A program made the position numbers and the translations under genes. From assembly GCA_043827405.1 (NCBI GenBank), contig JBDRPD010000108.1, positions 57,617-121,616 on the forward strand: a DNA stretch of 64,000 bases, given 5' to 3'. The notes beneath the pieces are model-generated. The model saw only the letters and a list, made by a program, of their open reading frames with translations. It was not told the DNA's origin and made no database searches. Origin of the DNA: Elusimicrobiota bacterium (GTDB lineage: Bacteria; Elusimicrobiota; Elusimicrobia; UBA1565). This document shows positions 9,028 to 25,534 of the stretch, piece by piece (the stretch's first letter is position 1; every line of letters begins with the position of its first letter).

Positions 9028-11004
9028 CTACTTGCTCTTGGCGAGTTCCTGCATGCTGAGACGCGCGTCGCAGACGTCGATATATGCCGCCGTCGCCGCC
9101 TCGCCCGAGCGCACCAGCGCCGACAGCGAATCGGCGGCCGAATTTACATGGGAATAAGCCTGGTTCGAGTTGCCGACGGCATCCGTCATGCTCGACTGCA
9201 TCTTTTGCAGATCGCGGGTCTGCGGGTAGCCGAGGTTGTCGGCCTTGGCCTTCTTATCCAGTTCGCGGATATCCTCGCGCCCCGTCTTGACGCCCTTCTG
9301 GATCGGACCCAGATCACCGCTCAAGCTGCCCACCATTAACGACTGGGGGATGAGGTCCAGCACCCGCTTCATCTCCCGGCCTACCGTTTCGCCGAAGCTC
9401 TGAAACGCTTCCGCCTCAGCGCTGGGCATGCCGCGCGAGATCGGCGGGAACTCTTTGGGGATGAGGCTGCGGGTGATATCCGCGTACTGGCGGACATGCT
9501 GGGCATAGTCCATCGCGTTGCGCAGCTTCTTGTGTGAAGCCAGGGCGCCCGCCCGGGGATCGATGGGCTCGCGGCGTTCGACCGTCTTGCTCCAGCGGCC
9601 GTCGTGCTCCGCCCAACCCTGGTTTTTCAGGTTCTTTTGCTGGTAGTACGAGAGATACTCCTTTTCGTTGCCGCGATCGTTGTAGTAGAGCGTATCCCAA
9701 TGCGAAACGTAGCGGCGGCAGCCGCCCGGAACCTTGGCGATCTCGCCGATGCTCGACGCCATATCCGCACTCGCGACGGCGATGCGCGGGCGCTGCTCGT
9801 TCTTGATGGCGTCTTCGATATCCTGCGCCGCGGCATAGGCTTCCGGGTAGGCCCGGTAGCGGCTCTTGGCGGAAACGACGGCCTGCTCCAGGGACGCGAG
9901 AACGGCGTCGGCCTCCTGCAGCCTGGAGCGGAGCGCCGGAATCTTCTGTATCTCGAAATCGGTTATTTTCGAGACGACATTCTCGAAATAGGAGTCCGCG
10001 ACATTGAGGAAATCCCCCGCCTGCCCCGTCATCGCGCTCGCGCTCTTATCCTTGACCGGCGTCTCCTTCGGCTTGGCGGTCGCCGCGCCGGCGCCGCCCT
10101 TGCCGAAGCCTCCCCCTCCTCCTCCGCCGCCCATGGTCGCACCGCCGCCACCGCCGCCGCCGCCCATGCTGGCCGCCCCCTTGCCGGGGCCGTTACCGCC
10201 GCCGGAACGCGGCAATGCCGCCTGGGGAATCTCCAGATTGGGAGGAGCCGCATTGCCGGCCGCCGCGGCCGGTGCCGCCGCGGCGGTCGATCCGGCTCCC
10301 GCCGCAGCCGCCTGCAGCGCCGCCCGCGCCGAGGCCATATGCCCGGCCATCGGAGCTCCGCCCGACGCGGCCTGCCCGCGAACAAAAGACCGGCCGCCGG
10401 CTTTAGCCGCGGCCGTATGGCCCGCGGCGGAAGCCGTCTTGATGGTCTTGGCCTGCTCCTCGCTTAACGGCCCATCATGGGCGCTTTCGGCGTCCTGGGC
10501 GATCGCCGCCGCCCCGGCGGCGACATAGTCATTATTGGCCAACGGATTAATCATCTCGAACGACCCCTTGTCCGGCCGTGCCGCCCGCTCCTTCACCTGC
10601 GCCATGCTGTCGGCCTCAACGTCGCCGATACGCGCCGTCTGCTGCGCCGCCATCTGCGCCATCCGCACCGCGTCCAGGGTTCCCCCGCGCGCGGAAGCGT
10701 CGCGCGCCGCCTCTTCCGCCTCCATGGAATCCGCGGTAATCACCGAAGCCGGCAGCTTCGCGTTGGTCAGCTTCTTGACGATCAGGTGGCCGCCGGCGGA
10801 CACGTCATTGGCTTCGGCGGAGTCCGACTTGTTCTGCAGCGCCGAGTCCATAATCTTCGCGATCTCCTCCGATGTCTGCCGCGGCTCAGACTTCTCGCCG
10901 CCAAACAGAATGGTTAAAGACCAAACAGTCACGCCGAGGAAAGCCGCCCCCCCCGCCGCGAGGCCCATAAGCTTCGGGTCGTTAATGATGCGCTCAAACT
11001 TCAT
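9028..11004 (-). CDS. N-terminally anchored surface protein, Gly/Ala-rich stalk, helical C-terminal region
   Basis: 658-aa ORF; TM LMGLAAGGAAFLGVTVWSLTILF; poly-Gly linker; predicted coiled-coil C-terminal half; SD-like AAGAAG; 12 bp downstream of the 847-aa gene. Confidence 0.75.
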   Translation of the reverse strand: MKFERIINDPKLMGLAAGGAAFLGVTVWSLTILFGGEKSEPRQTSEEIAKIMDSALQNKSDSAEANDVSAGGHLIVKKLTNAKLPASVITADSMEAEEAARDASARGGTLDAVRMAQMAAQQTARIGDVEADSMAQVKERAARPDKGSFEMINPLANNDYVAAGAAAIAQDAESAHDGPLSEEQAKTIKTASAAGHTAAAKAGGRSFVRGQAASGGAPMAGHMASARAALQAAAAGAGSTAAAAPAAAAGNAAPPNLEIPQAALPRSGGGNGPGKGAASMGGGGGGGGATMGGGGGGGGFGKGGAGAATAKPKETPVKDKSASAMTGQAGDFLNVADSYFENVVSKITDFEIQKIPALRSRLQEADAVLASLEQAVVSAKSRYRAYPEAYAAAQDIEDAIKNEQRPRIAVASADMASSIGEIAKVPGGCRRYVSHWDTLYYNDRGNEKEYLSYYQQKNLKNQGWAEHDGRWSKTVERREPIDPRAGALASHKKLRNAMDYAQHVRQYADITRSLIPKEFPPISRGMPSAEAEAFQSFGETVGREMKRVLDLIPQSLMVGSLSGDLGPIQKGVKTGREDIRELDKKAKADNLGYPQTRDLQKMQSSMTDAVGNSNQAYSHVNSAADSLSALVRSGEAATAAYIDVCDARLSMQELAKSK

Positions 11005-11016
11005 CTTCTTTGTCTA

Positions 11017-13560
11017 TCAACACCAGAACTGCCACCAACTGCACTGCGTCGGCGGCTTCGGCGGCGTCGGACAGGTGTAAGCCGGCGACGAGCCGTAGCC
11101 CTGATACTGCGGCGAGCCGTAGCTGCAGCTCGGCACCCGCTGCTTGGCCTTCCAACGCTCCTTGCAGTCGTACTCCCAGAACCAGCAATTGTCCGACTTG
11201 GGCGGGGGCGGGCAGGTATACGCCGGCTTCGCGCCGTAGCCCTCATACTTCGCCGCGCCGAACTGGCACTTGGGGACGGACTGCTTCGCCTTCCAGCGCT
11301 CCTTGCAGTCAAACTCCAGCCAGCCGCAGTTGTCCGACTTGGGACAGGCATAGGCCGGGCTCGCGCCGTAGCCCTGATACTCCGCCTCATATTTACCGCA
11401 ATTCGGGATCGACTGCTTGGCCTTCCAGCGCTCCTTGCAGGCGAAGTCGAAAACGCCGCAGTTGTCCGACTTGGGACAGATATAGGCCGGGCTCTTGCCG
11501 TAGCCCTGATACTCCGCCGTGTACTTGCCGCAATTGGGCACCGGCTGCTTCTGTTTCCACTTCTCCTTGCAGCCGAAGTCCAGGAAGCCGCAGTCTTCGG
11601 ACTTGGGCGGCTCCGGGCACTTCCATGCCGGGCTGGAGCCGTAGCCCTGATAGATGAAGTCTCCGTAGGCGCAGCTCATCTTCGGCTTGAGCTGGCTGGC
11701 CTTCCACCGGTCCTGGCAGTCCCACTCCATGATGCCGCAGTTCTCCGATTTGAGACTGGGCTGGGTGGATGTTCCGCCGCCCGGTATCTGCGGCGTCCAG
11801 CCTTCCAGGCCGCCGCCCTTCGCGGCCTGCGTCTCGCCCGTATCCGGATTGGCGGGACACTTATAGCCGACATTGGCCACGAACTCGGCCGCGCCGTAAA
11901 GGCAGCTTTGCGGCGCCTTGTCCCATATCCGCTTGGCCAATATCTTCTGGTTGTTGAGGCATTCTATTTCGACCGGCGCGCAGTTCTGGTACTTGAAGTC
12001 GTACTTATTGACCGTCTTGAACTCGCTCTGATCGATCGCCTTCTCGACCAGCGGCTTGATCCCGCCCAGGCGGACGCAGTTGATATGCGGGAAGTTTTTG
12101 TTGCGCGCGTCGCCCATCTGGATCGCCGGGCCGTCTTCGCAGGCGTCGGCGGTGAAGTTCACATACGGCTTGAGCGGATCACCCGTCCAGGTCCAGAAGC
12201 TGGTCCCCATTCCCAGCAGACAGACCCGGTCGCCGAAGTAGGGCTGATCGGTGCGCATGTCCTGAAAACCCGCCGGACAGCGATCGGCGCACAGCGGACC
12301 GTGGGTGTCGGTGTAGAGGACCCGGCAGGCCTGGCCGCTCGACCATCGATGCTGCAGGCTGACCAAGCGCACATCCGTCTTGAGCGGCTCTCCGATCGGC
12401 GCCGGAATAACGTTGTTGGCGTATGTCGTTCGCTCCTTCACGGCACTCTGCTCCGGCTGCTGCTCCTGGTTTTTTTCGGGCGGCGGCTCTCCCTCGTCGG
12501 CGGCGGCGTAGGGGTTGGTCGGCGCCTCGGCGACCGCGCCGTCGTTGCCGCCGCCGCCTCCACCGCCTCCGGCAGGCGCGCCGCCGCCCGCGGCCGGCGG
12601 CGCGTCCTTCTCCTTTTTCTCTTCGCGCATGCCCGACCAGGTTTTCTCGCCCCGCGTCTCCTGCACGGCCTCGCGGGCATTGCTGAACGCCCCCTGCACG
12701 CCCTTCAGGCCCGGAGCGGTATCCTGTATCTTCTCGTACGCTGTACCCTGCGCCTGCACGCCGGCCGCCGCGCCGCCCGGCGACTGCGTTTTGGATTCGG
12801 TCTTGCGCCTGCTCTCGCCCGCGGGCGCCGCGGAGCCCGGACGATTCTGCAGCGCATCGTTCTTCTTTTTGCCGTCCCTGTTGCCGAAGGACTCAAACTT
12901 GGCGAAGCCGCCCTGGCCGCCGCCCTGGGACAGACCCGAGAAAGACCGGATCAGCTTGGCGAGCTTATTATCGAGCTTCAGCTTCGCGCTTTCCTCCAAG
13001 GCCTTTCTTTCCGCCTCCTTCTGCGCCAGGATGTCCTCACGCGAGGTCCGGCTTCCACGGTCATCGGCGCTGGGCGCGTCTTTATCCTCATCCGCCTCGC
13101 TGAGAACGTCGGCGGAAGTATCCTCCTTCGACGACTTCTCCAGGCTTTCCATTTGCGCCAGCGTCACGCCCTCATAATCCCGCTTGTTCCAGCCCATCCC
13201 CTTAGTTTCGCCTTTGACGCCGGCCTTGGACATGTCGAAAGGCATGTCCTCCTCATTCGACATGGTCAGCCGGGTGGAATCCATGGCCGTGGCGCCCCCC
13301 TGGCGCCGCGGGTCCTTCAGCTTGGCGACATAGGTCCGCATCGGCGGGGTATCGCCGCCGGAAGAGTTCCCGCGCCCCATGCGGTCGGTGAAATTGACGC
13401 CGTCATGCTCGACCGGCATTACACCGCTATCGGTCCCCGTGAGCATCGCCGCGGCGGCTAAAACGACTACTCCGCCGGCCACCGCCGCCCCGATTCTAAA
13501 CTGTTTTTGCTCCAGCAGTTTGCCGAATTTTCTTTGCGCCTGCTTCATTTTTGATTCCAT
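11017..13560 (-). CDS. N-terminally anchored surface protein with Cys-rich domain and Cys/Trp tandem repeats
   Basis: 847-aa ORF; TM near residues 22-40; SD AGGAG upstream; five ~44-50-aa repeats KSDNCxxxxxxCKERWKAKQxxPxC...YQGYGxxPAYxCP. Confidence 0.85.
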   Translation of the reverse strand: MESKMKQAQRKFGKLLEQKQFRIGAAVAGGVVVLAAAAMLTGTDSGVMPVEHDGVNFTDRMGRGNSSGGDTPPMRTYVAKLKDPRRQGGATAMDSTRLTMSNEEDMPFDMSKAGVKGETKGMGWNKRDYEGVTLAQMESLEKSSKEDTSADVLSEADEDKDAPSADDRGSRTSREDILAQKEAERKALEESAKLKLDNKLAKLIRSFSGLSQGGGQGGFAKFESFGNRDGKKKNDALQNRPGSAAPAGESRRKTESKTQSPGGAAAGVQAQGTAYEKIQDTAPGLKGVQGAFSNAREAVQETRGEKTWSGMREEKKEKDAPPAAGGGAPAGGGGGGGGNDGAVAEAPTNPYAAADEGEPPPEKNQEQQPEQSAVKERTTYANNVIPAPIGEPLKTDVRLVSLQHRWSSGQACRVLYTDTHGPLCADRCPAGFQDMRTDQPYFGDRVCLLGMGTSFWTWTGDPLKPYVNFTADACEDGPAIQMGDARNKNFPHINCVRLGGIKPLVEKAIDQSEFKTVNKYDFKYQNCAPVEIECLNNQKILAKRIWDKAPQSCLYGAAEFVANVGYKCPANPDTGETQAAKGGGLEGWTPQIPGGGTSTQPSLKSENCGIMEWDCQDRWKASQLKPKMSCAYGDFIYQGYGSSPAWKCPEPPKSEDCGFLDFGCKEKWKQKQPVPNCGKYTAEYQGYGKSPAYICPKSDNCGVFDFACKERWKAKQSIPNCGKYEAEYQGYGASPAYACPKSDNCGWLEFDCKERWKAKQSVPKCQFGAAKYEGYGAKPAYTCPPPPKSDNCWFWEYDCKERWKAKQRVPSCSYGSPQYQGYGSSPAYTCPTPPKPPTQCSWWQFWC
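11020..11751 (-). repeat. Intragenic tandem repeat, ~132-150 bp units x5
   Basis: Recurrent GCAGTTGTCCGACTTGGG / GCCTTCCAGCGCTCCTTGCAG / GCCGTAGCCCTGATACT blocks encoding the 4-Cys repeat. Confidence 0.9.
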
Positions 13561-13638
13561 AACGGAATCTCCTGGCCAAGTTCAGATAGAAAGATAGCGC
13601 ACGGACGATCCGCCGCCCGTACGTGCGGGTATACGGTT

Positions 13639-13691
13639 AGGATAGCCCCAGCAGCGCGCAAGTTCCAGACACCTTTACCAAATATTTACCT
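13639..13691 (-). promoter_or_regulatory. Tandem GGTAAA direct repeat plus TATCCT -10 upstream of the 847-aa gene
   Basis: Minus strand AGGTAAAtattTGGTAAA-N26-GGCTATCCT; nearly identical arrangement at 22046-22097. Confidence 0.6.
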
Positions 13692-13784
13692 TTGCGCCGG
13701 CCCGGCCGCATAGGCCTTTGTGCCTATATGGTCCCAGGTCCATAGACCCTGCAAACCGTGCCCCATTAGGCTTACCTTATTGGT

Positions 13785-14924
13785 ATGAAGAGACTGCGGA
13801 CCATCGGCCGGGCCCTCGGGATCGCGCTGCTGACGGCGTCGCTGGCGCAGGCCGAGGCCGGCCTCGTCTCCCAGTACGGCGGCCTGGCGGAGTCGGCGGG
13901 CCGGCAGGGCGCCAAAATCCGCGAGCAGCAGCAGCAGTTCGCCCTTCAGCGCGAGCTGGCCGCCGCCCGCCGCCGCTCGGTCTTCCGCATCCTCTCCTGG
14001 AACGTGCAGACCTTCGGCGATATCAAGCCCGAGCGCGAGGCCGCCTACGAGATGCTCGGGCAGATGTTCTCCAGCCAGCGGTCATCCAAGATTCTGGCCG
14101 TCCAGGAAGTCGCCAACGACAAGGGCTCGGACAAATTCTCGGAGCTCCTGCCCGGCGGCGAGGACCGCTGGAACACCAACTTCCAGAACACCAACGATTC
14201 CCAGGACAACGGCTTCTACGTGCAGAAGTCCGTGCAGGTCGACTGCGAGGAGTTCCTCTTCGCCCGCGCGGATGAAAACGGCGACCACCGGAGCCGGGAC
14301 GACCGGGCCAAGCATCCCGCCCGCGCGGCGCATATGCGCGTCGGCGACTTCGACTTCACCTTGATCACCCTGCACCTGACCTTCAAGGGCGGCAAGACCG
14401 ACGCCAGCGCCGAGGAGCTCAAGCACATCCTCCGCTGGCTCGAGGACTATTTCGACAACCCCGAAAACGACCCGGACGTGATCCTGGCCGGCGACTTCAA
14501 TATGACCACCCGGGCCGGCGCCACCAGCGGCTCCAAAGCGGCGCTCGAGGACATCATCGAGCAGTTCCCGACGTTCCGGCGGGCTTACGACGCTGAGGGC
14601 AAGCGGGTACGCAAGCCGACCGAGCTGATCGCTCTGGTCGACGCCCCGACCTCGCGCTACAAGGGCGAGGCGAGAAACAACTACGACCACTTCATCGTTT
14701 CGGGCGACGTGTTCGACGAGGAGTTCGTCAGCGGCTCGGCCGGGCCGATCCCCGCCTCCTTCATCGAGGCCGCCGAGAAGAAGCACGACGTCTATGTCTC
14801 GGACCATATGCCGATCTCGGCCGGCTTTCTCTCCACGGGCGCCGGCAACGACGGCGAGGCCATCCGGTCCGATCAACCCGGCCCCACCAGCTCCCGCTCC
14901 TGCTGGAAGCGCGGCCGCAAATAA
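13785..14924 (+). CDS. Secreted DNase I-like endonuclease/exonuclease/phosphatase family protein
   Basis: Signal peptide; EEP motifs SWNVQTFG, AVQEV, TLHL, AGDFN, YDHF, SDHMP. Confidence 0.85.
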   Translation: MKRLRTIGRALGIALLTASLAQAEAGLVSQYGGLAESAGRQGAKIREQQQQFALQRELAAARRRSVFRILSWNVQTFGDIKPEREAAYEMLGQMFSSQRSSKILAVQEVANDKGSDKFSELLPGGEDRWNTNFQNTNDSQDNGFYVQKSVQVDCEEFLFARADENGDHRSRDDRAKHPARAAHMRVGDFDFTLITLHLTFKGGKTDASAEELKHILRWLEDYFDNPENDPDVILAGDFNMTTRAGATSGSKAALEDIIEQFPTFRRAYDAEGKRVRKPTELIALVDAPTSRYKGEARNNYDHFIVSGDVFDEEFVSGSAGPIPASFIEAAEKKHDVYVSDHMPISAGFLSTGAGNDGEAIRSDQPGPTSSRSCWKRGRK

Positions 14925-14976
14925 AGCGCACCCTCCCGCCTAGCGCGAAATTTGGTAAGTTTTTTGCGGAAGAACC

Positions 14977-16230
14977 ATGGCCGACTACAAGGAAATCGAC
15001 GCTTGCCGCATCTGCGGCAGCAGCCGCCTCATCCCCATCCTGGAGCTGGGATGCCAAGCGCTGACCGGCGTCTTCCCGAAATCCAGAGAGGAAAAGATCA
15101 CCGCCGGGCCGATCGAGCTCGTCAAGTGCGATGAGTCCGGCGGCGCGGACGCCTGCGGACTGGTGCAGCTGCGGCAGTCCTACAGCAAGGCCGAGATGTA
15201 CGGAAGCAACTACGGCTACCACTCCAGCCTCAACCGCTCCATGGTGGAGCATCTCGAAGACGTGGTCCGCCGGCTCACGGCGGACATCAAGCCCGAACGC
15301 GGCGACATCGTACTCGACATCGGCAGCAACGACGCGACCCTGCTCAAGGCCTATCCGCATGGCGCCGGTCTTGAGCTGACGGGAATAGATCCGACGGGGG
15401 AGAAGTTCAGAAAGTACTACCCTCCGCATATCCGCCTCATCGCGGACTTTTTCACCCGGGAGTCATTCGCCGCGGCCTTTCCGGAACGCCAAGCCAAGAT
15501 CGTCACCTCGATCGCCATGTTCTACGACCTCGACTCGCCGATCGACTTCATGCGGGAAGTCCGGTCCATCCTGCACCCGGAGGGCGTCTGGGTCATGGAG
15601 CAGAGCTACCTCCCCGCCATGCTCGACGCCACCGCCTACGACACGATCTGCCATGAGCACCTGGAATACTACGGCCTGCGGCAGATTCGCTGGATGGCGG
15701 AGCGCTCGGGGCTCAAGATCCTTGACGTCGAGACCAACGACATCAACGGCGGCAGCTTCGCCGTCCGCCTCGCCCGTCAAGACTCGGCCCGGCCGGAAAA
15801 TTCCCCGGCGATTGAAAAACTCCTCCGCCAGGAAGAGGCGTTGGCCGAAATGCGGCCGTACGAGGCGTTTCGCGAACGCGTGCTGCGCCAGCGCGAAAGC
15901 CTGGTGGAGTTTCTGCGCCAGGCCAAAGCCGAGGGCAAGCGCGTGCTCGGCTACGGGGCCTCGACTAAAGGCAACGTCATCCTCCAATACTGCGGCCTGA
16001 CCGAAGCGGACATCCCCTGCATCGGCGAAGTCAACACCGAGAAGTTCGGCTGCTTCACGCCCGGGACCCGCATCCCGATCGTCGATGAAAAGCAGGCGCG
16101 CGCCGACCAGCCGGACTACCTGCTCGTCCTGCCCTGGCATTTCAAAAGCTTCTTCCTCAAGAAAGAGACGGATTTCCTGCGCGCGGGCGGCAAGCTGGTA
16201 TTCCCCCTGCCGCAGATCGAGATCCATTAG
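14977..16230 (+). CDS. NDP-hexose C-methyltransferase (Zn-binding N-terminus + class I SAM domain)
   Basis: CRICGS...CGLVQL, LDIGSNDATLL, YDTICHEHLEYY, GYGASTKGNVILQYC, LVLPWHF. Confidence 0.88.
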   Translation: MADYKEIDACRICGSSRLIPILELGCQALTGVFPKSREEKITAGPIELVKCDESGGADACGLVQLRQSYSKAEMYGSNYGYHSSLNRSMVEHLEDVVRRLTADIKPERGDIVLDIGSNDATLLKAYPHGAGLELTGIDPTGEKFRKYYPPHIRLIADFFTRESFAAAFPERQAKIVTSIAMFYDLDSPIDFMREVRSILHPEGVWVMEQSYLPAMLDATAYDTICHEHLEYYGLRQIRWMAERSGLKILDVETNDINGGSFAVRLARQDSARPENSPAIEKLLRQEEALAEMRPYEAFRERVLRQRESLVEFLRQAKAEGKRVLGYGASTKGNVILQYCGLTEADIPCIGEVNTEKFGCFTPGTRIPIVDEKQARADQPDYLLVLPWHFKSFFLKKETDFLRAGGKLVFPLPQIEIH

Positions 16231-16231
16231 C

Positions 16232-17173
16232 ATGCGCAGGGCGGTGATCGTCGGCTGCGGCGGGCAGGACGGCCGGCTGCTGTTCGATCTTCTGCGGGAC
16301 AAGGGCTACGCGCTGACCGGCCTCGACGTCCGGCGCCGGCGCTGCGCGCGCTGCCGCGGCGGCGGGCCGGTCGACATCCGCAATGCCGGACAGGTGGAGC
16401 GGCTCATCCGCCGCTTCCGACCGCATGAAGTGTACTACCTCGCCGCCCGCCACCGCTCCGCGGAAGGCCGCGACGCGGAAAGCGCGGCGCTGCTGCGCGA
16501 CAGCTACGAGATCCACGTCCTCGGCCTGCTGCGCTTCCTCGATGCCATGCGGGTGTTTTCCCCCCGCACCCGGCTGTTCTACGCCTCATCCTCTTTGGTG
16601 TTCGGCACGCGGCGGGGCGGACGATTCGACGAGCGCTCGCCGCTGCGTCCCGATGAGATTTACGGCATCACCAAGGCCCAGGGGATGGCGCTGTGCCGCT
16701 TCTACCGGCGCCGGCACCGCTTGTTCACCGCCTCCGGCATCCTCTTCAACCACGAATCGCCGCTGCGCGGCGAAAGCTTCGTCTCCCGCCGCATCGTGCG
16801 CGGCGCGGTCGAAGTAAAGAAGGGCCACCGCCGCGCCGTGGTGCTCGGCGACCTCCGCGCCCAGGCGGACTGGGGCTGGGCGCCCGACTACGTGGAAGCG
16901 ATGCGGCGCATCCTCCGCGCCCCCCAGCCTGAGGACTTTATCGTGGCCACCGGGAAGAAGCATTCCGTCGGCGAGTTCGCGCGCCGGGTCTGCGCCCGTC
17001 TCGGCCTGGATCCCGAAAAACACCTGCACATCGACCAGCGGCGCCTGACGCGGCGCACGGGAGCTCGCGTCGGCGACGCCGGCCGGCTGCGGCGGCGCAC
17101 CGGATGGAAGCCGACCGTGGATTTCCCGGGGATGGTCGACCGGCTGCTGGCGGCCGAGCTGAAGGCGTCATGA
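16232..17173 (+). CDS. GDP-mannose 4,6-dehydratase-like SDR epimerase/dehydratase
   Basis: GCGGQDG, YASSS, YGITK, GILFNHESPLRG, DWGWAPDYVEAM; start at ATG 16232. Confidence 0.85.
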   Translation: MRRAVIVGCGGQDGRLLFDLLRDKGYALTGLDVRRRRCARCRGGGPVDIRNAGQVERLIRRFRPHEVYYLAARHRSAEGRDAESAALLRDSYEIHVLGLLRFLDAMRVFSPRTRLFYASSSLVFGTRRGGRFDERSPLRPDEIYGITKAQGMALCRFYRRRHRLFTASGILFNHESPLRGESFVSRRIVRGAVEVKKGHRRAVVLGDLRAQADWGWAPDYVEAMRRILRAPQPEDFIVATGKKHSVGEFARRVCARLGLDPEKHLHIDQRRLTRRTGARVGDAGRLRRRTGWKPTVDFPGMVDRLLAAELKAS

Positions 17174-17913
17174 AGCGGCCGCTGGTATTCATCCCGACCT
17201 ACAACGAGCGCAGCAACGTCGGCACCATCCTTAAGGAGCTCTGCGCCCTGGAGGTCGAGCTCGACATCCTGTTTCTCGACGACAATTCTCCCGACGGCAC
17301 GGGAGAGGTGCTCGACAAACTGGTCGCGGCATTCCCGCAGGTCAGCGTAATCCATCGCGCCGGCAAGCAGGGCATCGGCAGCGCCCACCAGGAAGGAATC
17401 CGCTGGGCCTACGAGAAAGGCTACCGCGTACTGATCACCATGGACTGCGACTTCACCCATCCGACCTGCTATATCCCGGACTTTATTGCCAAAGGGGAAC
17501 AAGGGACCGTCGTCGTCGGCTCACGCTATGTCCGTCACGACAGCCTGCAGAACTGGGACCTAACGCGCATCGTGCTGACGCATTTAGGCCACTTCATGAC
17601 CAAGTATTTCCTCTGCCTGCCCTACGACGCCACCGGCGCCTACCGCCTCTACCGGCTCGATAAGGTGCCGCATACGGCGTTCCTCCGCGTGCGCTCCCCG
17701 GGTTATTCCTTTTTCTTCGAAAGCCTCTACCTGCTGCACCGCAACGGCTTCCCGATCGAGGAAGTCGGCATCACCCTGCCGGCGCGCACGCGCGGCTACT
17801 CCAAGATGACTTTCCGCGACGCCTTCGTAAGCGCGCGCACGGTATGGGCGCTGTGGTGGGCGGGCCTGACCGACCGCAAGCGCTTCCTTATCGACGGGAA
17901 CAAGGACGCATGA
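17170..17913 (+). CDS. GT2 polyprenol-monophosphomannose synthase-like glycosyltransferase
   Basis: IPTYNERSN, DDNSPDGT, MDCDFTH, VVGSRY, DATGAYRLY; ATGA overlap. Confidence 0.88.
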   Translation: MKRPLVFIPTYNERSNVGTILKELCALEVELDILFLDDNSPDGTGEVLDKLVAAFPQVSVIHRAGKQGIGSAHQEGIRWAYEKGYRVLITMDCDFTHPTCYIPDFIAKGEQGTVVVGSRYVRHDSLQNWDLTRIVLTHLGHFMTKYFLCLPYDATGAYRLYRLDKVPHTAFLRVRSPGYSFFFESLYLLHRNGFPIEEVGITLPARTRGYSKMTFRDAFVSARTVWALWWAGLTDRKRFLIDGNKDA

Positions 17914-18575
17914 GCCGCATCAACACCGACGGCTGGAACGAGGACTCCGTCGTCCTTATCGAAAGCCCCCTCGCCAAGCTGCACCGCGCCTGGATGATGT
18001 CGCTGCTGGGCTTTCACCGGCTGGTGCCCGACAAGCAGGCGCGCATCCTCGACCTCGGCTGCGGCTCGGGCCCGTTTCTCGCCTACTTCGCCCGCCGCGG
18101 CTACCGCCGGCTCTGCGGCATCGAGCCCGACTCGGCGCTGATCGGCAACATCCCCAAGTACGTCGGGGCCGAGGTCAAGAACTGCCCGGCGGAGCAGATC
18201 GAGTTCGCCGACAGCACCTTCGATGTGGTTTTCATCTACTGCGTGCTGCATCATCTTAAAGACGAAGACGCCTACCGCGCCGCCTGCGCCGAGGTGCTGC
18301 GGGTTCTCAAGCCCGGCGGCCACATTTTCATCGTTGAACCCGGGCGCTACCGGGTTTTTCTCGCCCTGGAATTCGCCTCCTGGCTGCTCGGCTTCGTCTC
18401 CAAGACCTTCCGCGCGCTGTGGAATACCATGGAGGAAGAACGTCCGGTCCAGCACCATTTCCTCAAGAACCATCACGTCGTGCGCGAGCGGCTGCTGGCC
18501 GGCGGCGTCGAGACGCTGCGCGACGACTACTTCCTTTACTCCTGGATCTTCACCGCCCGCAAGCCGGAGCACTGA
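17910..18575 (+). CDS. Class I SAM-dependent methyltransferase
   Basis: ILDLGCGSG, FDVVF, VLHHL, RVLKPGG; ATGA overlap. Confidence 0.85.
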   Translation: MSRINTDGWNEDSVVLIESPLAKLHRAWMMSLLGFHRLVPDKQARILDLGCGSGPFLAYFARRGYRRLCGIEPDSALIGNIPKYVGAEVKNCPAEQIEFADSTFDVVFIYCVLHHLKDEDAYRAACAEVLRVLKPGGHIFIVEPGRYRVFLALEFASWLLGFVSKTFRALWNTMEEERPVQHHFLKNHHVVRERLLAGGVETLRDDYFLYSWIFTARKPEH

Positions 18576-19198
18576 TGCCGCCCGAACGCCTGCGCGACAT
18601 CGTCCCGGAATACCACAGCGGCAATCCGCTGGTGCGTTGGGTTTTCCGTCGGCGCGTCGACCTGGCGCTCGAACTGGCGCGGCTCGACGGCGCGGACTCC
18701 ATGGACATCCTGGACCTGGGCTGCGGCGAGGGCGTGCTGCTGCGCGCCATCGGCGAACGCTTTCCCGCACACCGGATGACGGGCGCGGATTTCCACCCGG
18801 ACGTCGAGCGGCTCGAGCTGCCGCAGGTGCGCGCCCTGCGCGTGGACTTTATGCGGGAGAACCCATTTCCGGAAGCGGCCTTTGACCGCGTCTTCTGCAT
18901 GGACGTGCTCGAGCATGTCGAAGACCTGAGCCGGCCGTTGGCGCTCATCCGCCGCGCCCTCAAGCCGGGCGGCCGCTTCGTCATATCGGCCCCGACCGAG
19001 AACTTCGCGCATCAGTTCAGCCGCTTCCTAATAAAAGGGACGTTCTCCGAGAAGGCGGGGCCGGCGGCGAGCCCGCACTACCATAAGGCGGATACGCTGT
19101 GCGCGGCGATCAACAAACATAACTTTATGCTGGAAGAAGTCCGCTCCATTCCCCTCCCGGGGCCGCTGGCGCTCAACCAGGTCTGCAGTTTTATCTAA
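18575..19198 (+). CDS. Class I SAM-dependent methyltransferase
   Basis: ILDLGCGEG, FDRVFCMDVLEHV, LKPGG; TGATG overlap. Confidence 0.85.
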   Translation: MPPERLRDIVPEYHSGNPLVRWVFRRRVDLALELARLDGADSMDILDLGCGEGVLLRAIGERFPAHRMTGADFHPDVERLELPQVRALRVDFMRENPFPEAAFDRVFCMDVLEHVEDLSRPLALIRRALKPGGRFVISAPTENFAHQFSRFLIKGTFSEKAGPAASPHYHKADTLCAAINKHNFMLEEVRSIPLPGPLALNQVCSFI

Positions 19199-19229
19199 GT
19201 ATTATCTACAGATACGCTGGTTCCAGGTC

Positions 19230-19258
19230 TTGATTTAGCAACATTCCCGCCCTATATT
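19230..19258 (+). promoter_or_regulatory. Sigma70-like promoter for the Tad-domain gene
   Basis: TTGATT (19230-35)-N17-TATATT (19253-58), ATG at 19274. Confidence 0.5.
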
Positions 19259-19273
19259 AGGGTAAAAGACGTT

Positions 19274-20473
19274 ATGTCTCTAATTGTTCGACACCTCCTC
19301 GCGGCCGCGCGGCCGCTTAGGAATAGGCGGGGTCAGTTGGCCATTCCCTCCCTATTCATTCTTCCTGCTTTGTTCCTGTTTGTATTCCTGATCTTTGAGA
19401 CGGCGAAGATTTCCCGCGAGAAAATCCGCCACCAGTTCGCGGTCGACTCGGCGGCTTTCGTCGAGATGTCGATCTACTCGGACTTTTTGAACCGCACCGC
19501 CTACAACAACGGCGCCTTTCCCCAGCGCGTCTTCGACCTGAGCTTTCGCGGCATCTGCATGGAGACCAAGACCGATACCGCCGCGATCCCGAGCCCCTAC
19601 TGCGGTGCGAAGTCGGCCAACCTCTACGACATCTTGTACAAGAACGGCGCCTTCCCGTCGGACCCGGGCAAGACCAAGACCGAACAGTACGAATCGATCG
19701 ACGATGAGGGCGAATGGAATCTCCGCTTCGGCGAGAACCCGATGTTCCCCGAGAATCGCAACGACTCCTCACCGAGTCTTAATGACAAGCTCTACCTCAT
19801 CACGGAAGAAGATGCGCACAACTACTGGATCACCTGGGACGACGCCAAGGACATCTACAAGCTCTACGTCCAGCTCTACCAGCTGGTGGGGATCGTCGAG
19901 GACTCGCAGTTCTCGGTGTTCTGCCGCATGACCGGAGCGACCGGCTGCACAAGCTCCGACAACCGGCACAACTACTTCCGCAAGTCGTACTGGCTCAATA
20001 CCAATGCCGGCGTCGAAGACGCCTATGACGGCGCGCAGGTCTTTAACGACTACAGCTTTGAGCCCGAGCCGAACTGTCTCAAGGAAATTATGATCTTCGG
20101 CAATAAGGCGACGCCCAACGCCTTCCAGCCCTTCCAGGTCTACGAGCCGCCGAATGCCGTCCAGATGAAGGACACCATCACCGGCTGCAGCGGGCTGTTT
20201 CAGATGGAGACGATCGATGAGGGCCAACTCCTGGATCTGGCCACACCGCACGGGGACTCGCCGCATCCCGGAATCCCCATCACCCAGCACTGGGACCTGG
20301 AAGGCACCTTGCTGAAGAACTACTTTGAAGTGGATTTCCATCAGGCGGTGCGCTGCCAGGACGGCGGCGGACCCTGCGTGCACGCGACCGTCGGGATATC
20401 TCATCCGGCCGGTACCGGCAAAGGGGTATGGCCGAACTCTACGCCGAAATTTCAGACCAGGCTTTATCCGTAG
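19274..20473 (+). CDS. Tad/TadG-like pseudopilin with large Cys-containing extracellular domain
   Basis: Basic leader RNRRGQ, hydrophobic helix, then REKIRHQFAVDSAAF (Tad N-terminal motif). Confidence 0.7.
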   Translation: MSLIVRHLLAAARPLRNRRGQLAIPSLFILPALFLFVFLIFETAKISREKIRHQFAVDSAAFVEMSIYSDFLNRTAYNNGAFPQRVFDLSFRGICMETKTDTAAIPSPYCGAKSANLYDILYKNGAFPSDPGKTKTEQYESIDDEGEWNLRFGENPMFPENRNDSSPSLNDKLYLITEEDAHNYWITWDDAKDIYKLYVQLYQLVGIVEDSQFSVFCRMTGATGCTSSDNRHNYFRKSYWLNTNAGVEDAYDGAQVFNDYSFEPEPNCLKEIMIFGNKATPNAFQPFQVYEPPNAVQMKDTITGCSGLFQMETIDEGQLLDLATPHGDSPHPGIPITQHWDLEGTLLKNYFEVDFHQAVRCQDGGGPCVHATVGISHPAGTGKGVWPNSTPKFQTRLYP

Positions 20474-20480
20474 GGGCGCG

Positions 20481-21977
20481 CTACCACCATTTCGTCACGG
20501 CGCCAAGAGCGGCGATGCCTCCGGCGACTCCACCCACTACAGCGCCGACAATTGCGCCAGTCACGGCTCCCGGAGCCCCCCCGGTCACGCCGCCGATGGC
20601 CGCACCAACACCCGCGCCGGCGGCCCCCCCGGCGATGGCACCCGCGCCGACCTTCTTCGTCTTGCACCACCAATCGCACGCCTCCGGCTCTGGAGCAGCA
20701 GGCGCCTCCGGCTCAGCGAGCAACGCGGGCACTTGCGGCCCCTGCGGCTGCCGCTGAGTCTGCGGCTGGGTCTGCGGCTGGGGCTGGGTCTGGGGCTGGG
20801 TCTGCGGCTGAGTCTGCTGCGCCGCTGCCAGACGCGCCGCCGCCAACCGTGCCGCTTCCTCCGCCGCCAGCCGCGCCGCTTCCGCATCCGCCAGCCGCTC
20901 CGCATTCGCCAGCCGCGCCGCTTCCGCATCCGCCGCCGCCAACCGCGCCGCCTCCGCGGCCGCCTCGGCATCCGCGCGCGCGCGCGCGATCTCCGCCGCA
21001 GCGTCTTCTTTAATGAAATCTATTTCCTTATTCTTCTCCGCGAGCAGCCGGCCGGCCTCATCGTCAAAATCATCAATATCCTTCCAGCCGGCGAGCCCAT
21101 TGCCGCCGACCACTCCGGGCTGCATACTGCTGACCTTGCTCGGTTTGCCGTCAGCGCCGAACTTCATCATGCCCGCCGCCCCACCGCCGCCGGCCGCGCC
21201 GCCGGCCGACCCGCGCGCCAGCATATTGCTGCCGGTCAGCTGCCGGCCTGCCGCCGCGCCGCCCGCGCCCGCGGGACCCATACCGCCGCCGGACCCATCA
21301 TTCTTGGTGAACCCCGCGCGCCCGAAGCTGCCCGCGGACGCGTCACTTCCCGACTGTCCGGATAAAGAGCGAATTTTCTTAAACTTGCCCGCGGTACCGG
21401 ACCGAACACCTTTTCCGGAAAGAACTCCAGGTCCGTATTTTCCCCCGCCCGCAGCCGCGCCCCCGCCCATACCCGCCACCGCATTCTTATACTGCGCCGA
21501 AGAACCCCCGCCGCCGCCCGCCCCGGATGCGCCGAGGGCCGACCCCCCGCCGCCGGCATCGATGCCGCCCATCTTCGCGATCTTCATATCGCCCCGCCCG
21601 CCTCGGGCGCCGCCGCTTCCCGGCGGCAGGTCGGCTTTGGACATATCGAAGGGCATATCGTCGCCGGCGACCGCCAACTGGGTACGGTCTCCGCCGCTGC
21701 GCACTGCCGCACCGGCCGCAGAGCGTGCCGCGCCGGCATCGCTATCGCCGGAGAGCTTCTTGACGTAGGAACGCATGGAGAAGATGCCGCCGCCCGCGTC
21801 TTTCTTGACCTCGCGCTGTCCGCCGTTCCATTCTACGCCGCCCTTGGGTGCCGGCTCACGCGATACCAGTAAAGCACCAACAGTCAGCACGGCGACCGCG
21901 CCCAGGCCGATCAACGGGCCCTTATTACCGAACTTGTCCAGCAAGCCGCCTTTATTTTTCATTGGCATCAATTCCAT
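20481..21977 (-). CDS. N-terminally anchored surface protein: Gly-rich region, AEAARLA helical stalk, QTQP linker, C-terminal glycine zipper
   Basis: 498-aa ORF; TM LIGLGAVAVLTVGALLV; shares MRxYVxKL, DMPFDMSKA and IRS(F/L)SG motifs with the 847-aa protein. Confidence 0.8.
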   Translation of the reverse strand: MELMPMKNKGGLLDKFGNKGPLIGLGAVAVLTVGALLVSREPAPKGGVEWNGGQREVKKDAGGGIFSMRSYVKKLSGDSDAGAARSAAGAAVRSGGDRTQLAVAGDDMPFDMSKADLPPGSGGARGGRGDMKIAKMGGIDAGGGGSALGASGAGGGGGSSAQYKNAVAGMGGGAAAGGGKYGPGVLSGKGVRSGTAGKFKKIRSLSGQSGSDASAGSFGRAGFTKNDGSGGGMGPAGAGGAAAGRQLTGSNMLARGSAGGAAGGGGAAGMMKFGADGKPSKVSSMQPGVVGGNGLAGWKDIDDFDDEAGRLLAEKNKEIDFIKEDAAAEIARARADAEAAAEAARLAAADAEAARLANAERLADAEAARLAAEEAARLAAARLAAAQQTQPQTQPQTQPQPQTQPQTQRQPQGPQVPALLAEPEAPAAPEPEACDWWCKTKKVGAGAIAGGAAGAGVGAAIGGVTGGAPGAVTGAIVGAVVGGVAGGIAALGAVTKWW

Positions 21978-22045
21978 AAATCACCCCCGGCAAACGCGAA
22001 AACCGCGGCCGGCTGCATAAACCCGACAAACACCCACTCACCTTA

Positions 22046-22097
22046 AGGATAGCCGGATGAAAGCGGAAAACAATACCTATTTACCATAAATTTACCT
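22046..22097 (-). promoter_or_regulatory. Tandem GGTAAA direct repeat plus TATCCT -10 upstream of the 498-aa gene
   Basis: Minus strand AGGTAAAtttaTGGTAAA-N25-GGCTATCCT; matches 13639-13691. Confidence 0.6.
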
Positions 22098-22121
22098 AAA
22101 AAAATACTTAAAAAAACGGCA

Positions 22122-23648
22122 CTATTGCTGATTACAATAGGCGCTCATCTCGGTCTTCCAGTTAGCGCAGTCCGCCATGCTGGCATTCTTGTAGAGCGGG
22201 CAAATCTCCGCCATCGCCGTCGCCTGGGTATTGGTCTCCGAACACTTGCCGAAAGCAATTTCCACCAAGGAGTTGCATTCCCCTGTACATACCTGCCACT
22301 GGTTTAAATATTCTTTTGACCGCTCCATGTGCGGGTCGCACTTCTCCGCACAATCTTCCTCGCAGCCGTTCATGCAGTTATGGTAGTCATGCTCTTTTTT
22401 GATGCTGTTTATTAACAGCTCATGACATATGCGGGCCTTGGGATAAACGATGCTCTGGTTATGCCTCTTGGTTTCCAGCATCGCGTCACGCACTTTCTTT
22501 CCCTGGTCCTTCTCCGCCTCGGCGCAGTCGTCAACCGCTTCCTCATACTCCTTCGATTTCTTCCGCAGGGTGTCTATATCCCCCCCGCCCCCTATCCCGG
22601 CGACGCCGCCGCCTCCCAGCTGGGTGGCGGGCAACTTATTGCCGTCATAAACAATCCCGGCGGCATCTTTGGCCGTACCGGCGGGGCAGGCCCCCGAGCT
22701 GCAGCCCTCGGGCTGGTCGGAAGCGGCGACGCTGAAAGCATGCGCCATGGACAGCTGATAGACGGCGTCCTCGCCTACCAGTTCCGCTCCGCCCAAAGCG
22801 TTTAAATCCTGCTCGGTCCTGGCGCTAAGCAGCTGCTGGATGCGGCCGCCTTTCTGCAGGCCCTTGATGCTGCTGATGCTTTTTCTATCACGAATGATGT
22901 TCTCTTGAATACGCGACTCGGGACTGAGCGCTTTATGCAGATCCGCCCCCCCCGTAACCAGCTGCTCCGGACCGGGACCGGGGCCGGCGGCGACACCCTT
23001 GCCTATAGCGACGCCTTGACCGCCGCCGACGCCCCCGCCGGCGGCCACGCCCTGACCGGCAGCGACGCCCTCACCGCCGGCGACCCCTCGCCCCCCGGCC
23101 ACGCTTTGACCGGCGGCTACACCCTTACCGCCGGCAACCGGGGCGCCCATATCCATCGCGGCGCCGGCGGGAGACATGGAACGTTTCTTCTCGTCCGAGA
23201 CGACCATGGCATATGAGGCGCTGCGCAAACCTTTTGCCAGCGCCTCTTCGCTGATCGCCAAACCGCCGCCCTTGGGAGCGTCCCGCGGCCGCAGCACGCC
23301 CCGGACCGACTGCGGCATATTCCTGGCTACGCCGTCGAAAGTGAGCGCTTTGCCCTGGATCGCCTGCTGCCCGCGCACGATCTCCTCGATATCGTCTTCT
23401 TCGTCGTCGTAGCTCATCACCATGCGCGCCGACATGCTCCGGCGGTAGGCGCGGACATCCTGCGGCGCCTCGGTCTTGTCTCCGATCATGCTTGCGGACT
23501 TGTCGCCGCCGGAAGAACGCAGGAACAGCGATACGGTCAGCGGCGCCGCGACGATCAGAATGATGGAGGCGCTCTTGTTCTGCTGAAAAAATGCCAGCAG
23601 CGGCGCCAGAAGAGCCTTCTTTTTATTGCGTTCCAGAAACCCCGGCAT
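22122..23648 (-). CDS. N-terminally anchored surface protein with GVAxGx hexapeptide repeats and Cys-rich C-terminal tip
   Basis: Start ATG 23648 (MPGFLERNKKK) lies downstream of a consensus promoter; TM SIILIVAAPLTVSLFL; about 12 Cys in the last ~135 aa. Confidence 0.78.
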   Translation of the reverse strand: MPGFLERNKKKALLAPLLAFFQQNKSASIILIVAAPLTVSLFLRSSGGDKSASMIGDKTEAPQDVRAYRRSMSARMVMSYDDEEDDIEEIVRGQQAIQGKALTFDGVARNMPQSVRGVLRPRDAPKGGGLAISEEALAKGLRSASYAMVVSDEKKRSMSPAGAAMDMGAPVAGGKGVAAGQSVAGGRGVAGGEGVAAGQGVAAGGGVGGGQGVAIGKGVAAGPGPGPEQLVTGGADLHKALSPESRIQENIIRDRKSISSIKGLQKGGRIQQLLSARTEQDLNALGGAELVGEDAVYQLSMAHAFSVAASDQPEGCSSGACPAGTAKDAAGIVYDGNKLPATQLGGGGVAGIGGGGDIDTLRKKSKEYEEAVDDCAEAEKDQGKKVRDAMLETKRHNQSIVYPKARICHELLINSIKKEHDYHNCMNGCEEDCAEKCDPHMERSKEYLNQWQVCTGECNSLVEIAFGKCSETNTQATAMAEICPLYKNASMADCANWKTEMSAYCNQQ

Positions 23649-23670: not shown

Positions 23671-23698
23671 AGTATACCGCCGGGTCCCGGCCTGTCAA
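23671..23698 (-). promoter_or_regulatory. Near-consensus sigma70 promoter
   Basis: TTGACA (23698-23693)-N16-TATACT (23676-23671). Confidence 0.7.
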
Positions 23699-23749
23699 TA
23701 CCGCGGCAAAGTCCTTGATTTCGCAATGTTTTTGAGCGACACTAAGACA

Positions 23750-25534
23750 ATGCTGAAAGCCCAGACGCCGCCGTCCTTGAAGCTGACCCCCAAGACCATC
23801 GCCCTGTTGGTTTTGGCCGGCATCATCCTCGGCGTGGCGACCGGACTGTGCATGAAGCTCCTGAAAAAAGGCCGCCCCGCCGCCGGCCGGATGGGTGCCG
23901 ACGAACGCGTAATCTGGCGCGATATCGACAGCCGCCACATGCGCTGGCGCAAGCTCGACGCACGCAAGCTGATCGTCAATAATGTCGGGCTCAAGCCGCT
24001 CAACCCGAACTACACCAAGAACGCGACCCTCGGCTACCTGCCGCTCAATCCTTCGCTGCGGGGCGCTACGGTCGGCCGATTAGCCGCTACCGAGATCCCA
24101 GACATGGGCCGCGAGCGCGCCAATGCCGAAAAGGAGCGCAAAAAGCGCAGCGACCGGCGCCGCCCCTCGCCCTCCCACCAACTGACGCCCAAGCCGCCCA
24201 AGACCGACGCCGCGACGAACTTCATCCCGCAGACGCAGGCGTTCACTTTGCCCGATCCCGCGGCGGACCTGGTAAGTCAGGCCGCGAACTCGCTGCGGCT
24301 CGGCGACATCGACGATGCGCTCGCCGCCGCCGACCGGGCGATCGCCGCCAATCCGGCCAGCGCCGCCGCCTTCACCGTCCGGGCGGACGCGCTGATCGCC
24401 CGCGAGCGCTACCTCGATGCGGCGAAAAGCGCCTGGAAGGCGACCCGCCTGGACCCCAAAGAGGCGAACGCCTACCGGGTCTTGGGGTTGGCGCAGATGC
24501 ACCTGGAAAAGCGAAAATCCGCGCTGGCCAACCTGAATTATTCCGTCAAGCTGAACCCGTACGATGCGAGAATTTTCGCGGCGCGGGCGACCCTGCACCA
24601 GCTGCTGGGAGACACCGCGGCCATGACGGCCGACCTGGAGCGGGCGGAAGAAATTAAAAAAGCGCTCACCGCGGAAGAGCCGTCCCCGGAGCCGCCGCTG
24701 AGCGCGGGGATACTGGCCGCCCTGGCGCTGGGCGCCGCGCTCCTCCTCGTCGGCGGAGTTTTCTTTCTCCTGCGTTCGCGTCCGGCGCCCCGCAAGATCT
24801 CGCTGGAAGCCATCGCCCCCGCCAAGCCCGCGGTCACCCCGCTGCCGGCCGCCGACGGCGCGCCCCTCCCGGGGAAGTACCAGCGCGTCCGCGCTCTAGG
24901 CGGGGGGCCCGGCGGTCCGCTATGGCTGGTGCGCCACCCGTCGTCGCCGCAGCAGCTTGTCGCCAAGCCGCTGCGCCCCGGCGCGGCGCTGAGCGAAGCG
25001 GAGAGACACGCGGCCCGCACGCGCCTGCAGGCGATCGGCGGCTTGGGAGACCCGCGCATCGTCCGGGTCCTGGACCTGCTGGAAGACGCGGCGCCGCCGC
25101 TGCTCGTGCAGGAATATGTGCTGGACAGCACGCTGCGGCAGGTGCTGGAAAGCGGCGGCGCGCTCGGCATCGCGCCGGCGCGGGCGATCCTGCTTCCCGT
25201 CTGTGAGGCCCTGACGAACTGCCACGGCAACGGCATCCTGCACCTGAACCTCAAGCCCGCCAATATCTTCGTCGGCCAGGACGGCGGCGCCCGCATCGCC
25301 GACTTTCGGCTGCTGGCGGCCGCCGGCGAGCACCTCGCCCCGGAGCTGGCCAAAGGACTGGCTTCGCCGCGCTCCGACATATACTCGCTGGGCGTCTGCC
25401 TGCGGGAAGCGGTGGGCGAAGGGCCGGGCAGAACGCCCGAAGCCGAGGCGCTGATCGCCAAAGCGACGAATGCGGAACCCCTGCTGCGCCACGCCACAGT
25501 CCTTGAGTTCCAGACCGACCTGCACGCCCTCTAG
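23750..25534 (+). CDS. TPR-TM-Ser/Thr kinase-like receptor (probable pseudokinase)
   Basis: N-terminal TM, TPRs, second TM, Hanks-type fold (LGGGPGG, LVAK, HLNLKPANI, IADF, LAPE, SDIYSLG). Confidence 0.8.
   Translation: MLKAQTPPSLKLTPKTIALLVLAGIILGVATGLCMKLLKKGRPAAGRMGADERVIWRDIDSRHMRWRKLDARKLIVNNVGLKPLNPNYTKNATLGYLPLNPSLRGATVGRLAATEIPDMGRERANAEKERKKRSDRRRPSPSHQLTPKPPKTDAATNFIPQTQAFTLPDPAADLVSQAANSLRLGDIDDALAAADRAIAANPASAAAFTVRADALIARERYLDAAKSAWKATRLDPKEANAYRVLGLAQMHLEKRKSALANLNYSVKLNPYDARIFAARATLHQLLGDTAAMTADLERAEEIKKALTAEEPSPEPPLSAGILAALALGAALLLVGGVFFLLRSRPAPRKISLEAIAPAKPAVTPLPAADGAPLPGKYQRVRALGGGPGGPLWLVRHPSSPQQLVAKPLRPGAALSEAERHAARTRLQAIGGLGDPRIVRVLDLLEDAAPPLLVQEYVLDSTLRQVLESGGALGIAPARAILLPVCEALTNCHGNGILHLNLKPANIFVGQDGGARIADFRLLAAAGEHLAPELAKGLASPRSDIYSLGVCLREAVGEGPGRTPEAEALIAKATNAEPLLRHATVLEFQTDLHAL

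Follow-up and report, generated by a model that had tools for sequence, protein, structure and literature searches.

The region at positions 9,028 to 23,648 of a 64,000-nucleotide stretch of Elusimicrobiota DNA (assembly GCA_043827405.1, contig JBDRPD010000108.1; hereafter the window) encodes four membrane-anchored stalk proteins and a TadG-like minor pilin. We give roughly even odds to the reading that this region is a satellite cassette, part of an expanded set of diversified, Tad-associated contact proteins whose ends bind membranes, comparable to the Kil Tips of Myxococcus. Our comparisons demonstrate gene duplications, paralogy between two of the stalk proteins, selection on their short motifs and an expansion of related genes across the genome. 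A preliminary description had treated the four stalk genes as one family of surface proteins, with conserved motifs that dock on a shared export machine, possibly Tad, and tips that are swapped. That interpretation is half right; the comparisons made here do not support tip swapping. Below, C-numbers denote contigs of the source genome (G000), L-numbers loci and P-numbers proteins.

The four open reading frames, of 658, 847, 498 and 508 aa, are all present as described, on the minus strand: C658 (P0003, 9028..11004), A847 (P0001, 11017..13560), B498 (P0002, 20481..21977) and D508 (P0004, 22122..23648). Each begins with a hydrophobic helix preceded by more basic than acidic residues, and the first Cys past that helix falls at residue 316-434. 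From these features we infer an N-in topology for all four, with motifs and tips outside the cytoplasm and the motifs on the predicted periplasmic side. The single-helix layout ascribed to them holds at the N-terminus, but B498 has two extra C-terminal hydrophobic helices; whether tips are "swapped" or proteins lie at the "surface" cannot be read from sequence. Three families are found here, not one. A847 and B498 align at a local-alignment z of 9.3 and the pairs with C658 or D508 at z ≤0.4, in keeping with the earlier remark that the likeness of these two to the first pair is only architectural. C658 and D508 each have clear homologues of their own, D508 in the family of array gene F7 (see below) and C658 in a separate family. 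All reading frames of the region are intact, and G+C content at third codon positions (GC3) spans 0.74-0.92.

A847 has an anchor at residues 23-41, a motif-bearing stalk and a Cys-rich tip with five tandem repeats. Its paralogue B498 has an anchor at residues 20-38, A847-type motifs, an Ala/Glu repeat helix, a Gln/Pro linker, a CDWWC loop and a C-terminal Gly-rich hydrophobic hairpin. The motifs MR[TS]YV, DMPFDMSKA and IRS[FL]SG named in the preliminary description are present: in A847 as MRTYVAKL (residues 74-81, 13318..13341), DMPFDMSKA (13222..13248) and IRSFSG (12934..12951), and in B498 with an identical DMPFDMSKA at 21633..21659, all on the minus strand. A six-frame translation of the genome (37,251 stretches) has MR[TS]YV and IRS[FL]SG in these two proteins only. 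A single 9-mer is not rare per se, as A847 and B498 each show one further chance 9-mer match, and homology rests instead on the collinear N-terminus: residues 4-138 (~135 N-terminal residues) align with an hhalign probability of 96% (E 2e-9), and a genome-wide phmmer search (3,651 genes) pairs the two at E 4.5e-4. By these alignments A847 and B498 are true paralogues over the N-terminus. Four of the nine DMPFDMSKA codons differ synonymously, and 13 of the 26 identical residues in five motif blocks are encoded by different codons. At the DNA level the two genes align only over a 31-base stretch at DMPFDMSKA and at Gly-run matches. The lack of wider DNA alignment, taken with the synonymous changes, points to short motifs that are probably under selection, with the peptide maintained and not recently copied. 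If the predicted N-in topology holds, a cytoplasmic machine is unlikely to read these motifs as an export signal, since they come after the membrane anchor.

A search with A847 residues 1-230 against 1.84 billion representatives returned only two outside relatives, P0007 at E 5e-13 and P0008 at E 9e-4. Both seem to be fragments. They retain the anchor and the DST-L, KL..L.RS.SG and FGNKD.KK blocks, and at the DMPFDMSKA site they read DPDFDMNNS and NMSVNMANS, respectively. The proposal of an invariant docking word thus fails; DMPFDMSKA is genome-specific, compatible with co-evolution alongside a genome-specific partner. P0008 also aligns with the GAFSNAR block and the first Cys module of the A847 tip, which implies that head and tip start stayed together. 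Searches of 392 other class genomes detected no member of the A847/B498 family, and profile A2, run across 393 genomes, gave four weak matches, all inspected and unrelated. Nothing beyond the query came from profile A1 against longer proteins, from P0001 in 61 genomes or from B498 residues 1-240 among 8,000 candidates, and a metagenome scan yielded 253 pattern matches of which none was confirmed. The sequencing runs that match best are groundwater metagenomes, one of them possibly the source of this DNA, and none of the matching runs listed is an RNA data set; a single contig of that run spans the region in three listed pieces. A related strain, whose contigs (depth about 5) were taken as one organism, carries the same A847 repeats adjoining C658. 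Two mostly-A847 pieces of this strain differ by 3.4% and 4.1%, as compared with 0.9% for trmA/ychF.

D508 belongs to the cassette's second family. A hidden Markov model (HMM) of array gene F7 built without D508 recovers it at E 1.8e-19 (hhalign 99%), and the homology is full-length, including the QL..A..AY..C..CP..GxVYDG motif and a Cys-clamped helical hairpin that carries an insertion in D508. In the F7 tree D508 pairs with the C1 copy on long branches and with uncertain placement; we read it as a long-branch, fast-evolving duplicate of F7. F7 is present in 75 of 101 genomes, with four copies here; among the other 74 positive genomes, 67 have one copy and seven have two.

The TadG-like minor pilin (P0005, 19274..20473, plus strand) is a lineage-specific duplicate of the core copy on contig C1. 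The pilin of the window and its counterpart on C28 cluster with that core copy (100/99), on branches of 0.46 and 0.94 versus 0.16, and both of these recent duplicates adjoin an F7 copy. The leader of P0005 (RNRRG-Q) is basic and Gly-ended ahead of a long hydrophobic helix, with no Glu at +5. Its AlphaFold2 (AF2) model (predicted local distance difference test score, pLDDT, 92.9) has a 57-residue N-terminal helix (3-59) and a globular head; none of the structures listed by a fold search with this model exceeded Z 5.0 or reached E 0.001. P0005 falls below the PF13400 cut-off (E 0.033), and a paralogue on C91 lies above it. The pilin family is Elusimicrobiota-wide, with 80 loci from Elusimicrobiota records or 'bacterium' bins, many of them cut by contig ends.

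In a second satellite (C28:1-4852 and C94:39631-40554; L090, L160), a pilin duplicate precedes an F7 copy that is divided between two contigs, and anchored stalk genes occupy the opposite strand. The older pilin paralogue (C91:33473-35900, L091; also L143-L153) is always paired with an anchored protein of its own, an arrangement conserved across the family (all 11 such loci among relatives). This partner ends in QLLeTKR..C..C..E.RI..RAtfyGE; in one relative, G003, it begins with an FHA-like part, and that genome has two more related genes. A similar-looking motif suggested kinship with F7, which hhalign (1.8%) did not bear out. Genes resembling TPR proteins and Ser/Thr kinases (window 23726-25534; G000:C1:43426-47374) adjoin two of the three F7 satellites.

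The core locus from which these duplicates derive is split in this genome between C1:70181-78650 (L089) and C22:51959-73168 (L088). It runs from two Tad-type pilins and an FtsH-like protease through F1-F6, F7 and F8 to genes of 1083 and 3018 aa. F1-F6 are six related Gly-rich proteins, of which F2-F6 end in hydrophobic hairpins. Among the core-locus genes scanned, TadE and FtsH are the only significant Pfam families; F1-F8 and the satellite genes have no significant match in Pfam or NCBIfam (F3, F5 and F6 in Pfam alone). Of the 42 loci that extend 6 kb or more past the pilin, 35 have array genes after it. Within 10 kb of the pilin, tadC occurs in 19 of 80 loci and FtsH in 58 of 80. The Tad machine of this genome sits on contig C83, apart from the window, with two Flp-like pilins, TadE, a CpaB-like protein, secretin, TadA, TadB/C-like and TPR genes, where names other than the Pfam matches are our reading of the sequence. 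The suggested link to Tad therefore holds in part: the pilin and D508 duplicate genes of a tadC-linked Elusimicrobiota locus, and A847, B498 and C658 are tied to it by adjacency alone. As in Tad/Flp (type IVc) pilus loci, a Tad gene set is encoded; unlike in those loci, it comes with a Gly-rich array and satellites that lack a significant family match. Tad systems have been detected in Elusimicrobia (PMC6668835).

The array is amplified well beyond the window. Eleven further F2-F6-type satellites are scattered in this genome (two at an assembly branch), and relatives expand F8 instead, with up to nine matches. The F8 paralogues lie in tandem or scattered (G008:C12:52000-59000, G004:C367, G001:C41:129000-137500; L123, L128, L130) and combine a conserved N-terminal half with C-termini of widely differing length, a clearer head and variable-tail case than the window. 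Some HMM matches (L135, L136, L138, L139) resemble vWA-type fusions with a sigma factor next to them. The genome is unusually pilus-rich, with 22 PF00437 matches (20 above cut-off) and three secretins above cut-off. In the Elusimicrobium-like loci L071-L081 the first two array proteins look different and contain DLADMPFS/DLGNMPFD, and the stretch examined gave no FtsH match; cultured Elusimicrobium relatives (L072-L077) appear to carry the core locus. The DMPF word in these proteins was weighed as a sign of kinship with A847 and B498 and is taken as chance (hhalign 0.5%). Of the papers listed by our literature searches, one of which was dominated by unrelated word uses, none describes this array in its title or abstract. 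The words pili, Tad, secretion and predat are absent from the main text of 10.1101/765248, whose supplements might list these families, and the passages of 10.1101/2023.11.21.568195 on Elusimicrobiota mention large genes only.

We propose that the cassette adds alternative contact modules to a single Tad-associated envelope apparatus. In this model a duplicated, fast-evolving pilin and F7 copy would act together with the lineage-restricted paralogues A847 and B498 and the resident C658, next to which they sit. The proteins would be anchored in the inner membrane (N-in), with some 300 residues of mostly disordered stalk. Once the proteins are inserted into the membrane in the ordinary way, short motifs close to the anchor may engage a common periplasmic partner, and the far ends (Cys-clamped aromatic loops, a Gly-rich hairpin, a Cys-clamped helical hairpin) may attach to membranes or surfaces. 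An alternative pilus tip would be supplied by the extra pilin, like the four Kil Tips of Myxococcus, and diversity would come chiefly from duplication, rapid divergence, tip repeat expansion and insertion, with module exchange merely hinted at.

The closest described case is Myxococcus xanthus, in which four paralogous Kil Tip clusters (kilLMN) are described as serving one Tad pilus (PMC12075869). In the genome studied here, too, a single Tad machine is accompanied by several paralogous minor-pilin loci at other sites, and a large TadG/KilN-like pilin bears an extra head domain. The Kil Tips, as given there, are pilin heterotrimers; the satellite here encodes a lone pilin without a TadE/F partner, and adds non-pilin anchored stalk proteins without a Pfam or NCBIfam family. 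A Kil-type cluster of two to three pilins is accordingly not present, the window holding a single pilin and TadE matches occurring solely on C83 and C1. The resemblance, drawn by analogy, is one of logic and not of membership.

Several observations weigh against the satellite-cassette reading. The array is missing from 7 of the 42 loci, so the pilin genes and the array are linked but separable; the satellite lacks a second pilin and FtsH, and the F7 copy at C1:47371 stands without a neighbouring pilin. The tie of A847, B498 and C658 to Tad is adjacency only: hhalign probabilities against the core array are ≤2% for A847 and B498 and 14% at best for C658, and neither a 57-row F8 nor a 20-row F6 HMM matches A847 or B498. 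B498 and D508 lie on the strand opposite the pilin, A847 and C658 are 6 kb off behind unrelated genes, and C658 adjoins ychF in 7 of 13 relatives' loci without an A847/B498-like neighbour. Five other non-housekeeping pieces of the related strain differ by 1.9-3.0%, making the A847 excess modest. Derivation of A847 and B498 from F8 or F6, suggested by eye, gained no support from the HMM and hhalign tests. An A847/B498 motif scan tops at F2 (mean 31.8 versus 17.8 for other open reading frames) through the anchor and SLDYFAKAN, with the caveat that these F2 rows are kin and that the A847/B498 profile has only four rows.

C658, which has a conserved helical C-terminal half, bears on a different explanation. 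Its relatives occur in at least 10 of 16 family genomes by a stricter first look, and it aligns end to end with eight full-length relatives at 18-25% identity in every segment. The 13 loci counted above are the 14 fetched less one kinase-like false member, and the position beside ychF in relatives indicates that it is older than the cassette. C658 is, on this comparison, a resident family gene and not a variable tip. Only the 36-column anchor of its family resembles that of A847 and B498 (hhalign 69%, versus ≤5% for 10 control families), while a direct C658-family HMM ranks A847 and B498 just 116th and 153rd of 3,653.

TolA and TonB are periplasm-spanning proteins with an N-terminal anchor, a long low-complexity stalk and a folded end, a layout that A847, B498 and C658 share. 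These three could be internal envelope tethers of that kind, anchored in the inner membrane with tips that grip the outer membrane or wall and with no role in cell contact. The Ala/Glu-rich repeat helix of B498 and the stability of C658 as a family-wide gene would suit such a role, as would the top non-candidate match of the motif scan, a TonB-like protein in an exbBD-like context (named by reading the sequence). A route across the outer membrane is also not evident. We nonetheless consider tethers unlikely: Pfam and NCBIfam give no TolA/TonB match, and the ends are disulfide-rich or hydrophobic. A847 and B498, unlike housekeeping tethers, are lineage-restricted (0 of 392 other class genomes) and diverging fast, and the co-duplicated pilin is left unexplained.

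The tips were examined next to the claim that they are unrelated and exchanged. The A847 tip (11020..11751, minus strand) comprises five Cys/aromatic repeats of 44-49 aa, with four Cys each and an aromatic loop between the first two, and a terminal CSWWQFWC. A model of the repeat forms a helix and hairpin (pLDDT 76; predicted template modelling score, pTM, 0.42), and its fold search gave nothing at Z ≥2. Tip searches (1,598 candidates; also the Atlas) returned the query alone, and a repeat profile run on 393 genomes found one match, interrupted by stops. By these comparisons the 44-aa four-Cys repeat is an orphan, with no relative found in the searches made. The B498 tip (20496..20678, minus strand) consists of CDWWC and two Gly-rich hydrophobic helices, glycine-zipper-like by eye; its hairpin has no Pfam Gly-zipper match. 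The two tips fail to align (z 1.3), in line with the earlier view of them as unrelated, yet a Cys-clamped Trp loop occurs in each: CSWWQFWC in A847 and CDWWC in B498. Tip exchange finds no support in the end-to-end alignment of C658, the conserved Cys-hairpin that D508 retains despite its insertion, or the first Cys module common to P0008 and A847. In the comparison that could be made, of two fragmentary A847/B498 relatives and one related strain, tips are shared.

Polymorphic toxin systems such as contact-dependent inhibition (CDI/CdiA), Rhs and the Caulobacter Cdz glycine-zipper toxins combine like features. On that model the motifs would direct cargo to Tad, and the B498 hairpin would be one of several exchangeable tips that perforate or poison target cells. 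A847 and B498 do have a common head with different tails, and the B498 hairpin resembles pore-forming glycine zippers. On C28, a small exported-looking open reading frame (2236-2742) duplicates its neighbour's tip at 67% DNA identity, leaving an orphan tip copy. A tandem of anchored Cys-rich orphans on C96 (20222-27286, L157), of 938 and 1390 aa with 16 and 52 Cys, has the same layout and A847-like Trp loops, and is a possible second pair of the A847/C658 type. Its 938-aa protein combines a C658-like anchor (rank 4 of 3,653) and an MPFD word with one A847-like module at z 5.0, one of many comparisons; the repeat HMM misses this module at E 10. The 1390-aa protein has two CxxWW..WGC loops, and its A847/B498-like motifs stand in the expected order, which places it third of 2,392 in a collinear scan. 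As a third member of that family it is suggestive only (Gumbel-fit E about 3.5, hhalign 1.8%), and its N-terminus gave five weak matches in 101 genomes, of which the three inspected were unrelated. The C96 and C28 cases are hints of module swapping, short of proof.

Tad pili also mediate killing in Myxococcus (PMC12075869). Nevertheless, Pfam and NCBIfam identify no toxin domain in the region's proteins. No small immunity-like open reading frame lies directly downstream of A847 or B498, where the next genes are 13 and 8 bases off, and no transporter, junction motif or demonstrated swap was found. The motifs differ among relatives, the tip start is common to A847 and P0008, and the related strain has the same repeats. 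Toxins or effectors are thus somewhat less probable still than tethers. A 209-aa protein with a signal-peptide-like start and a weak glycine-zipper match is encoded 4 kb from the region (window 4621-5250, minus strand).

Between the two gene pairs lie the pilin and the nuclease mentioned in the preliminary description, and also five sugar-modifying genes that it omitted (14977..19198, plus strand): a C-methyltransferase, a GDP-mannose dehydratase-like gene, a GT2 glycosyltransferase and two methyltransferases. The nuclease (13785..14924, plus strand), an EEP-family nuclease/phosphatase with a signal-peptide-like N-terminus, is an ordinary single-copy enzyme found in 30 of 101 genomes. None of the five homologues checked has an array, A847/B498 or C658 gene within ~1.5 kb. 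A part for it as an effector is hence not upheld, a further point against toxins, and it and the sugar-modifying genes look like passengers. A promoter and terminator scan of the region gave sites at chance level; one near-consensus sigma-70-like site (11/12) lies immediately upstream of D508 (23671-23698, minus strand).

The mixed strands, the passengers, the three families, the residency of C658 and the GC3 range would all fit a chance assembly at an insertion hot spot beside ychF, in which unrelated duplicates and orphans share only a membrane-protein layout. Intact frames, motifs under selection and the recurrence of the pilin and F7 pairing on C28/C94 argue otherwise, as does, suggestively, the second tandem of similar parts on C96. 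We regard chance assembly as the least probable account of the region. Should it or another of the alternatives hold, the window would be merely an orphan-rich island.

A bolder extension of the satellite-cassette reading, also by analogy, is an undescribed Tad-coupled contact apparatus of Elusimicrobiota. Its anchored stalk array would insert hydrophobic hairpins or disulfide-clamped aromatic loops, the latter akin to fusion loops, into another cell's membrane, with more than 12 target-specific variants in this genome addressed by short docking motifs. We think this improbable, a little less so than chance assembly. Concrete targets are nonetheless at hand in the orphan 44-aa four-Cys repeat, the confidently modelled pilin head without a listed structural match and the short motifs, and the apparent presence of the core locus in cultured Elusimicrobium relatives makes its core function approachable. 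The array is widespread, family-less and tied to Tad tip pilins, and its amplification differs by lineage, with F7, the pilin and F2-F6 multiplied here and F8 in relatives; a cell-contact system under diversifying pressure would be expected to look like this. The array bears on the lifestyle of free-living Elusimicrobiota; if the membrane-inserting apparatus were real, these bacteria would live as epibionts or as predators by contact, equipped with a combinatorial set of tips.

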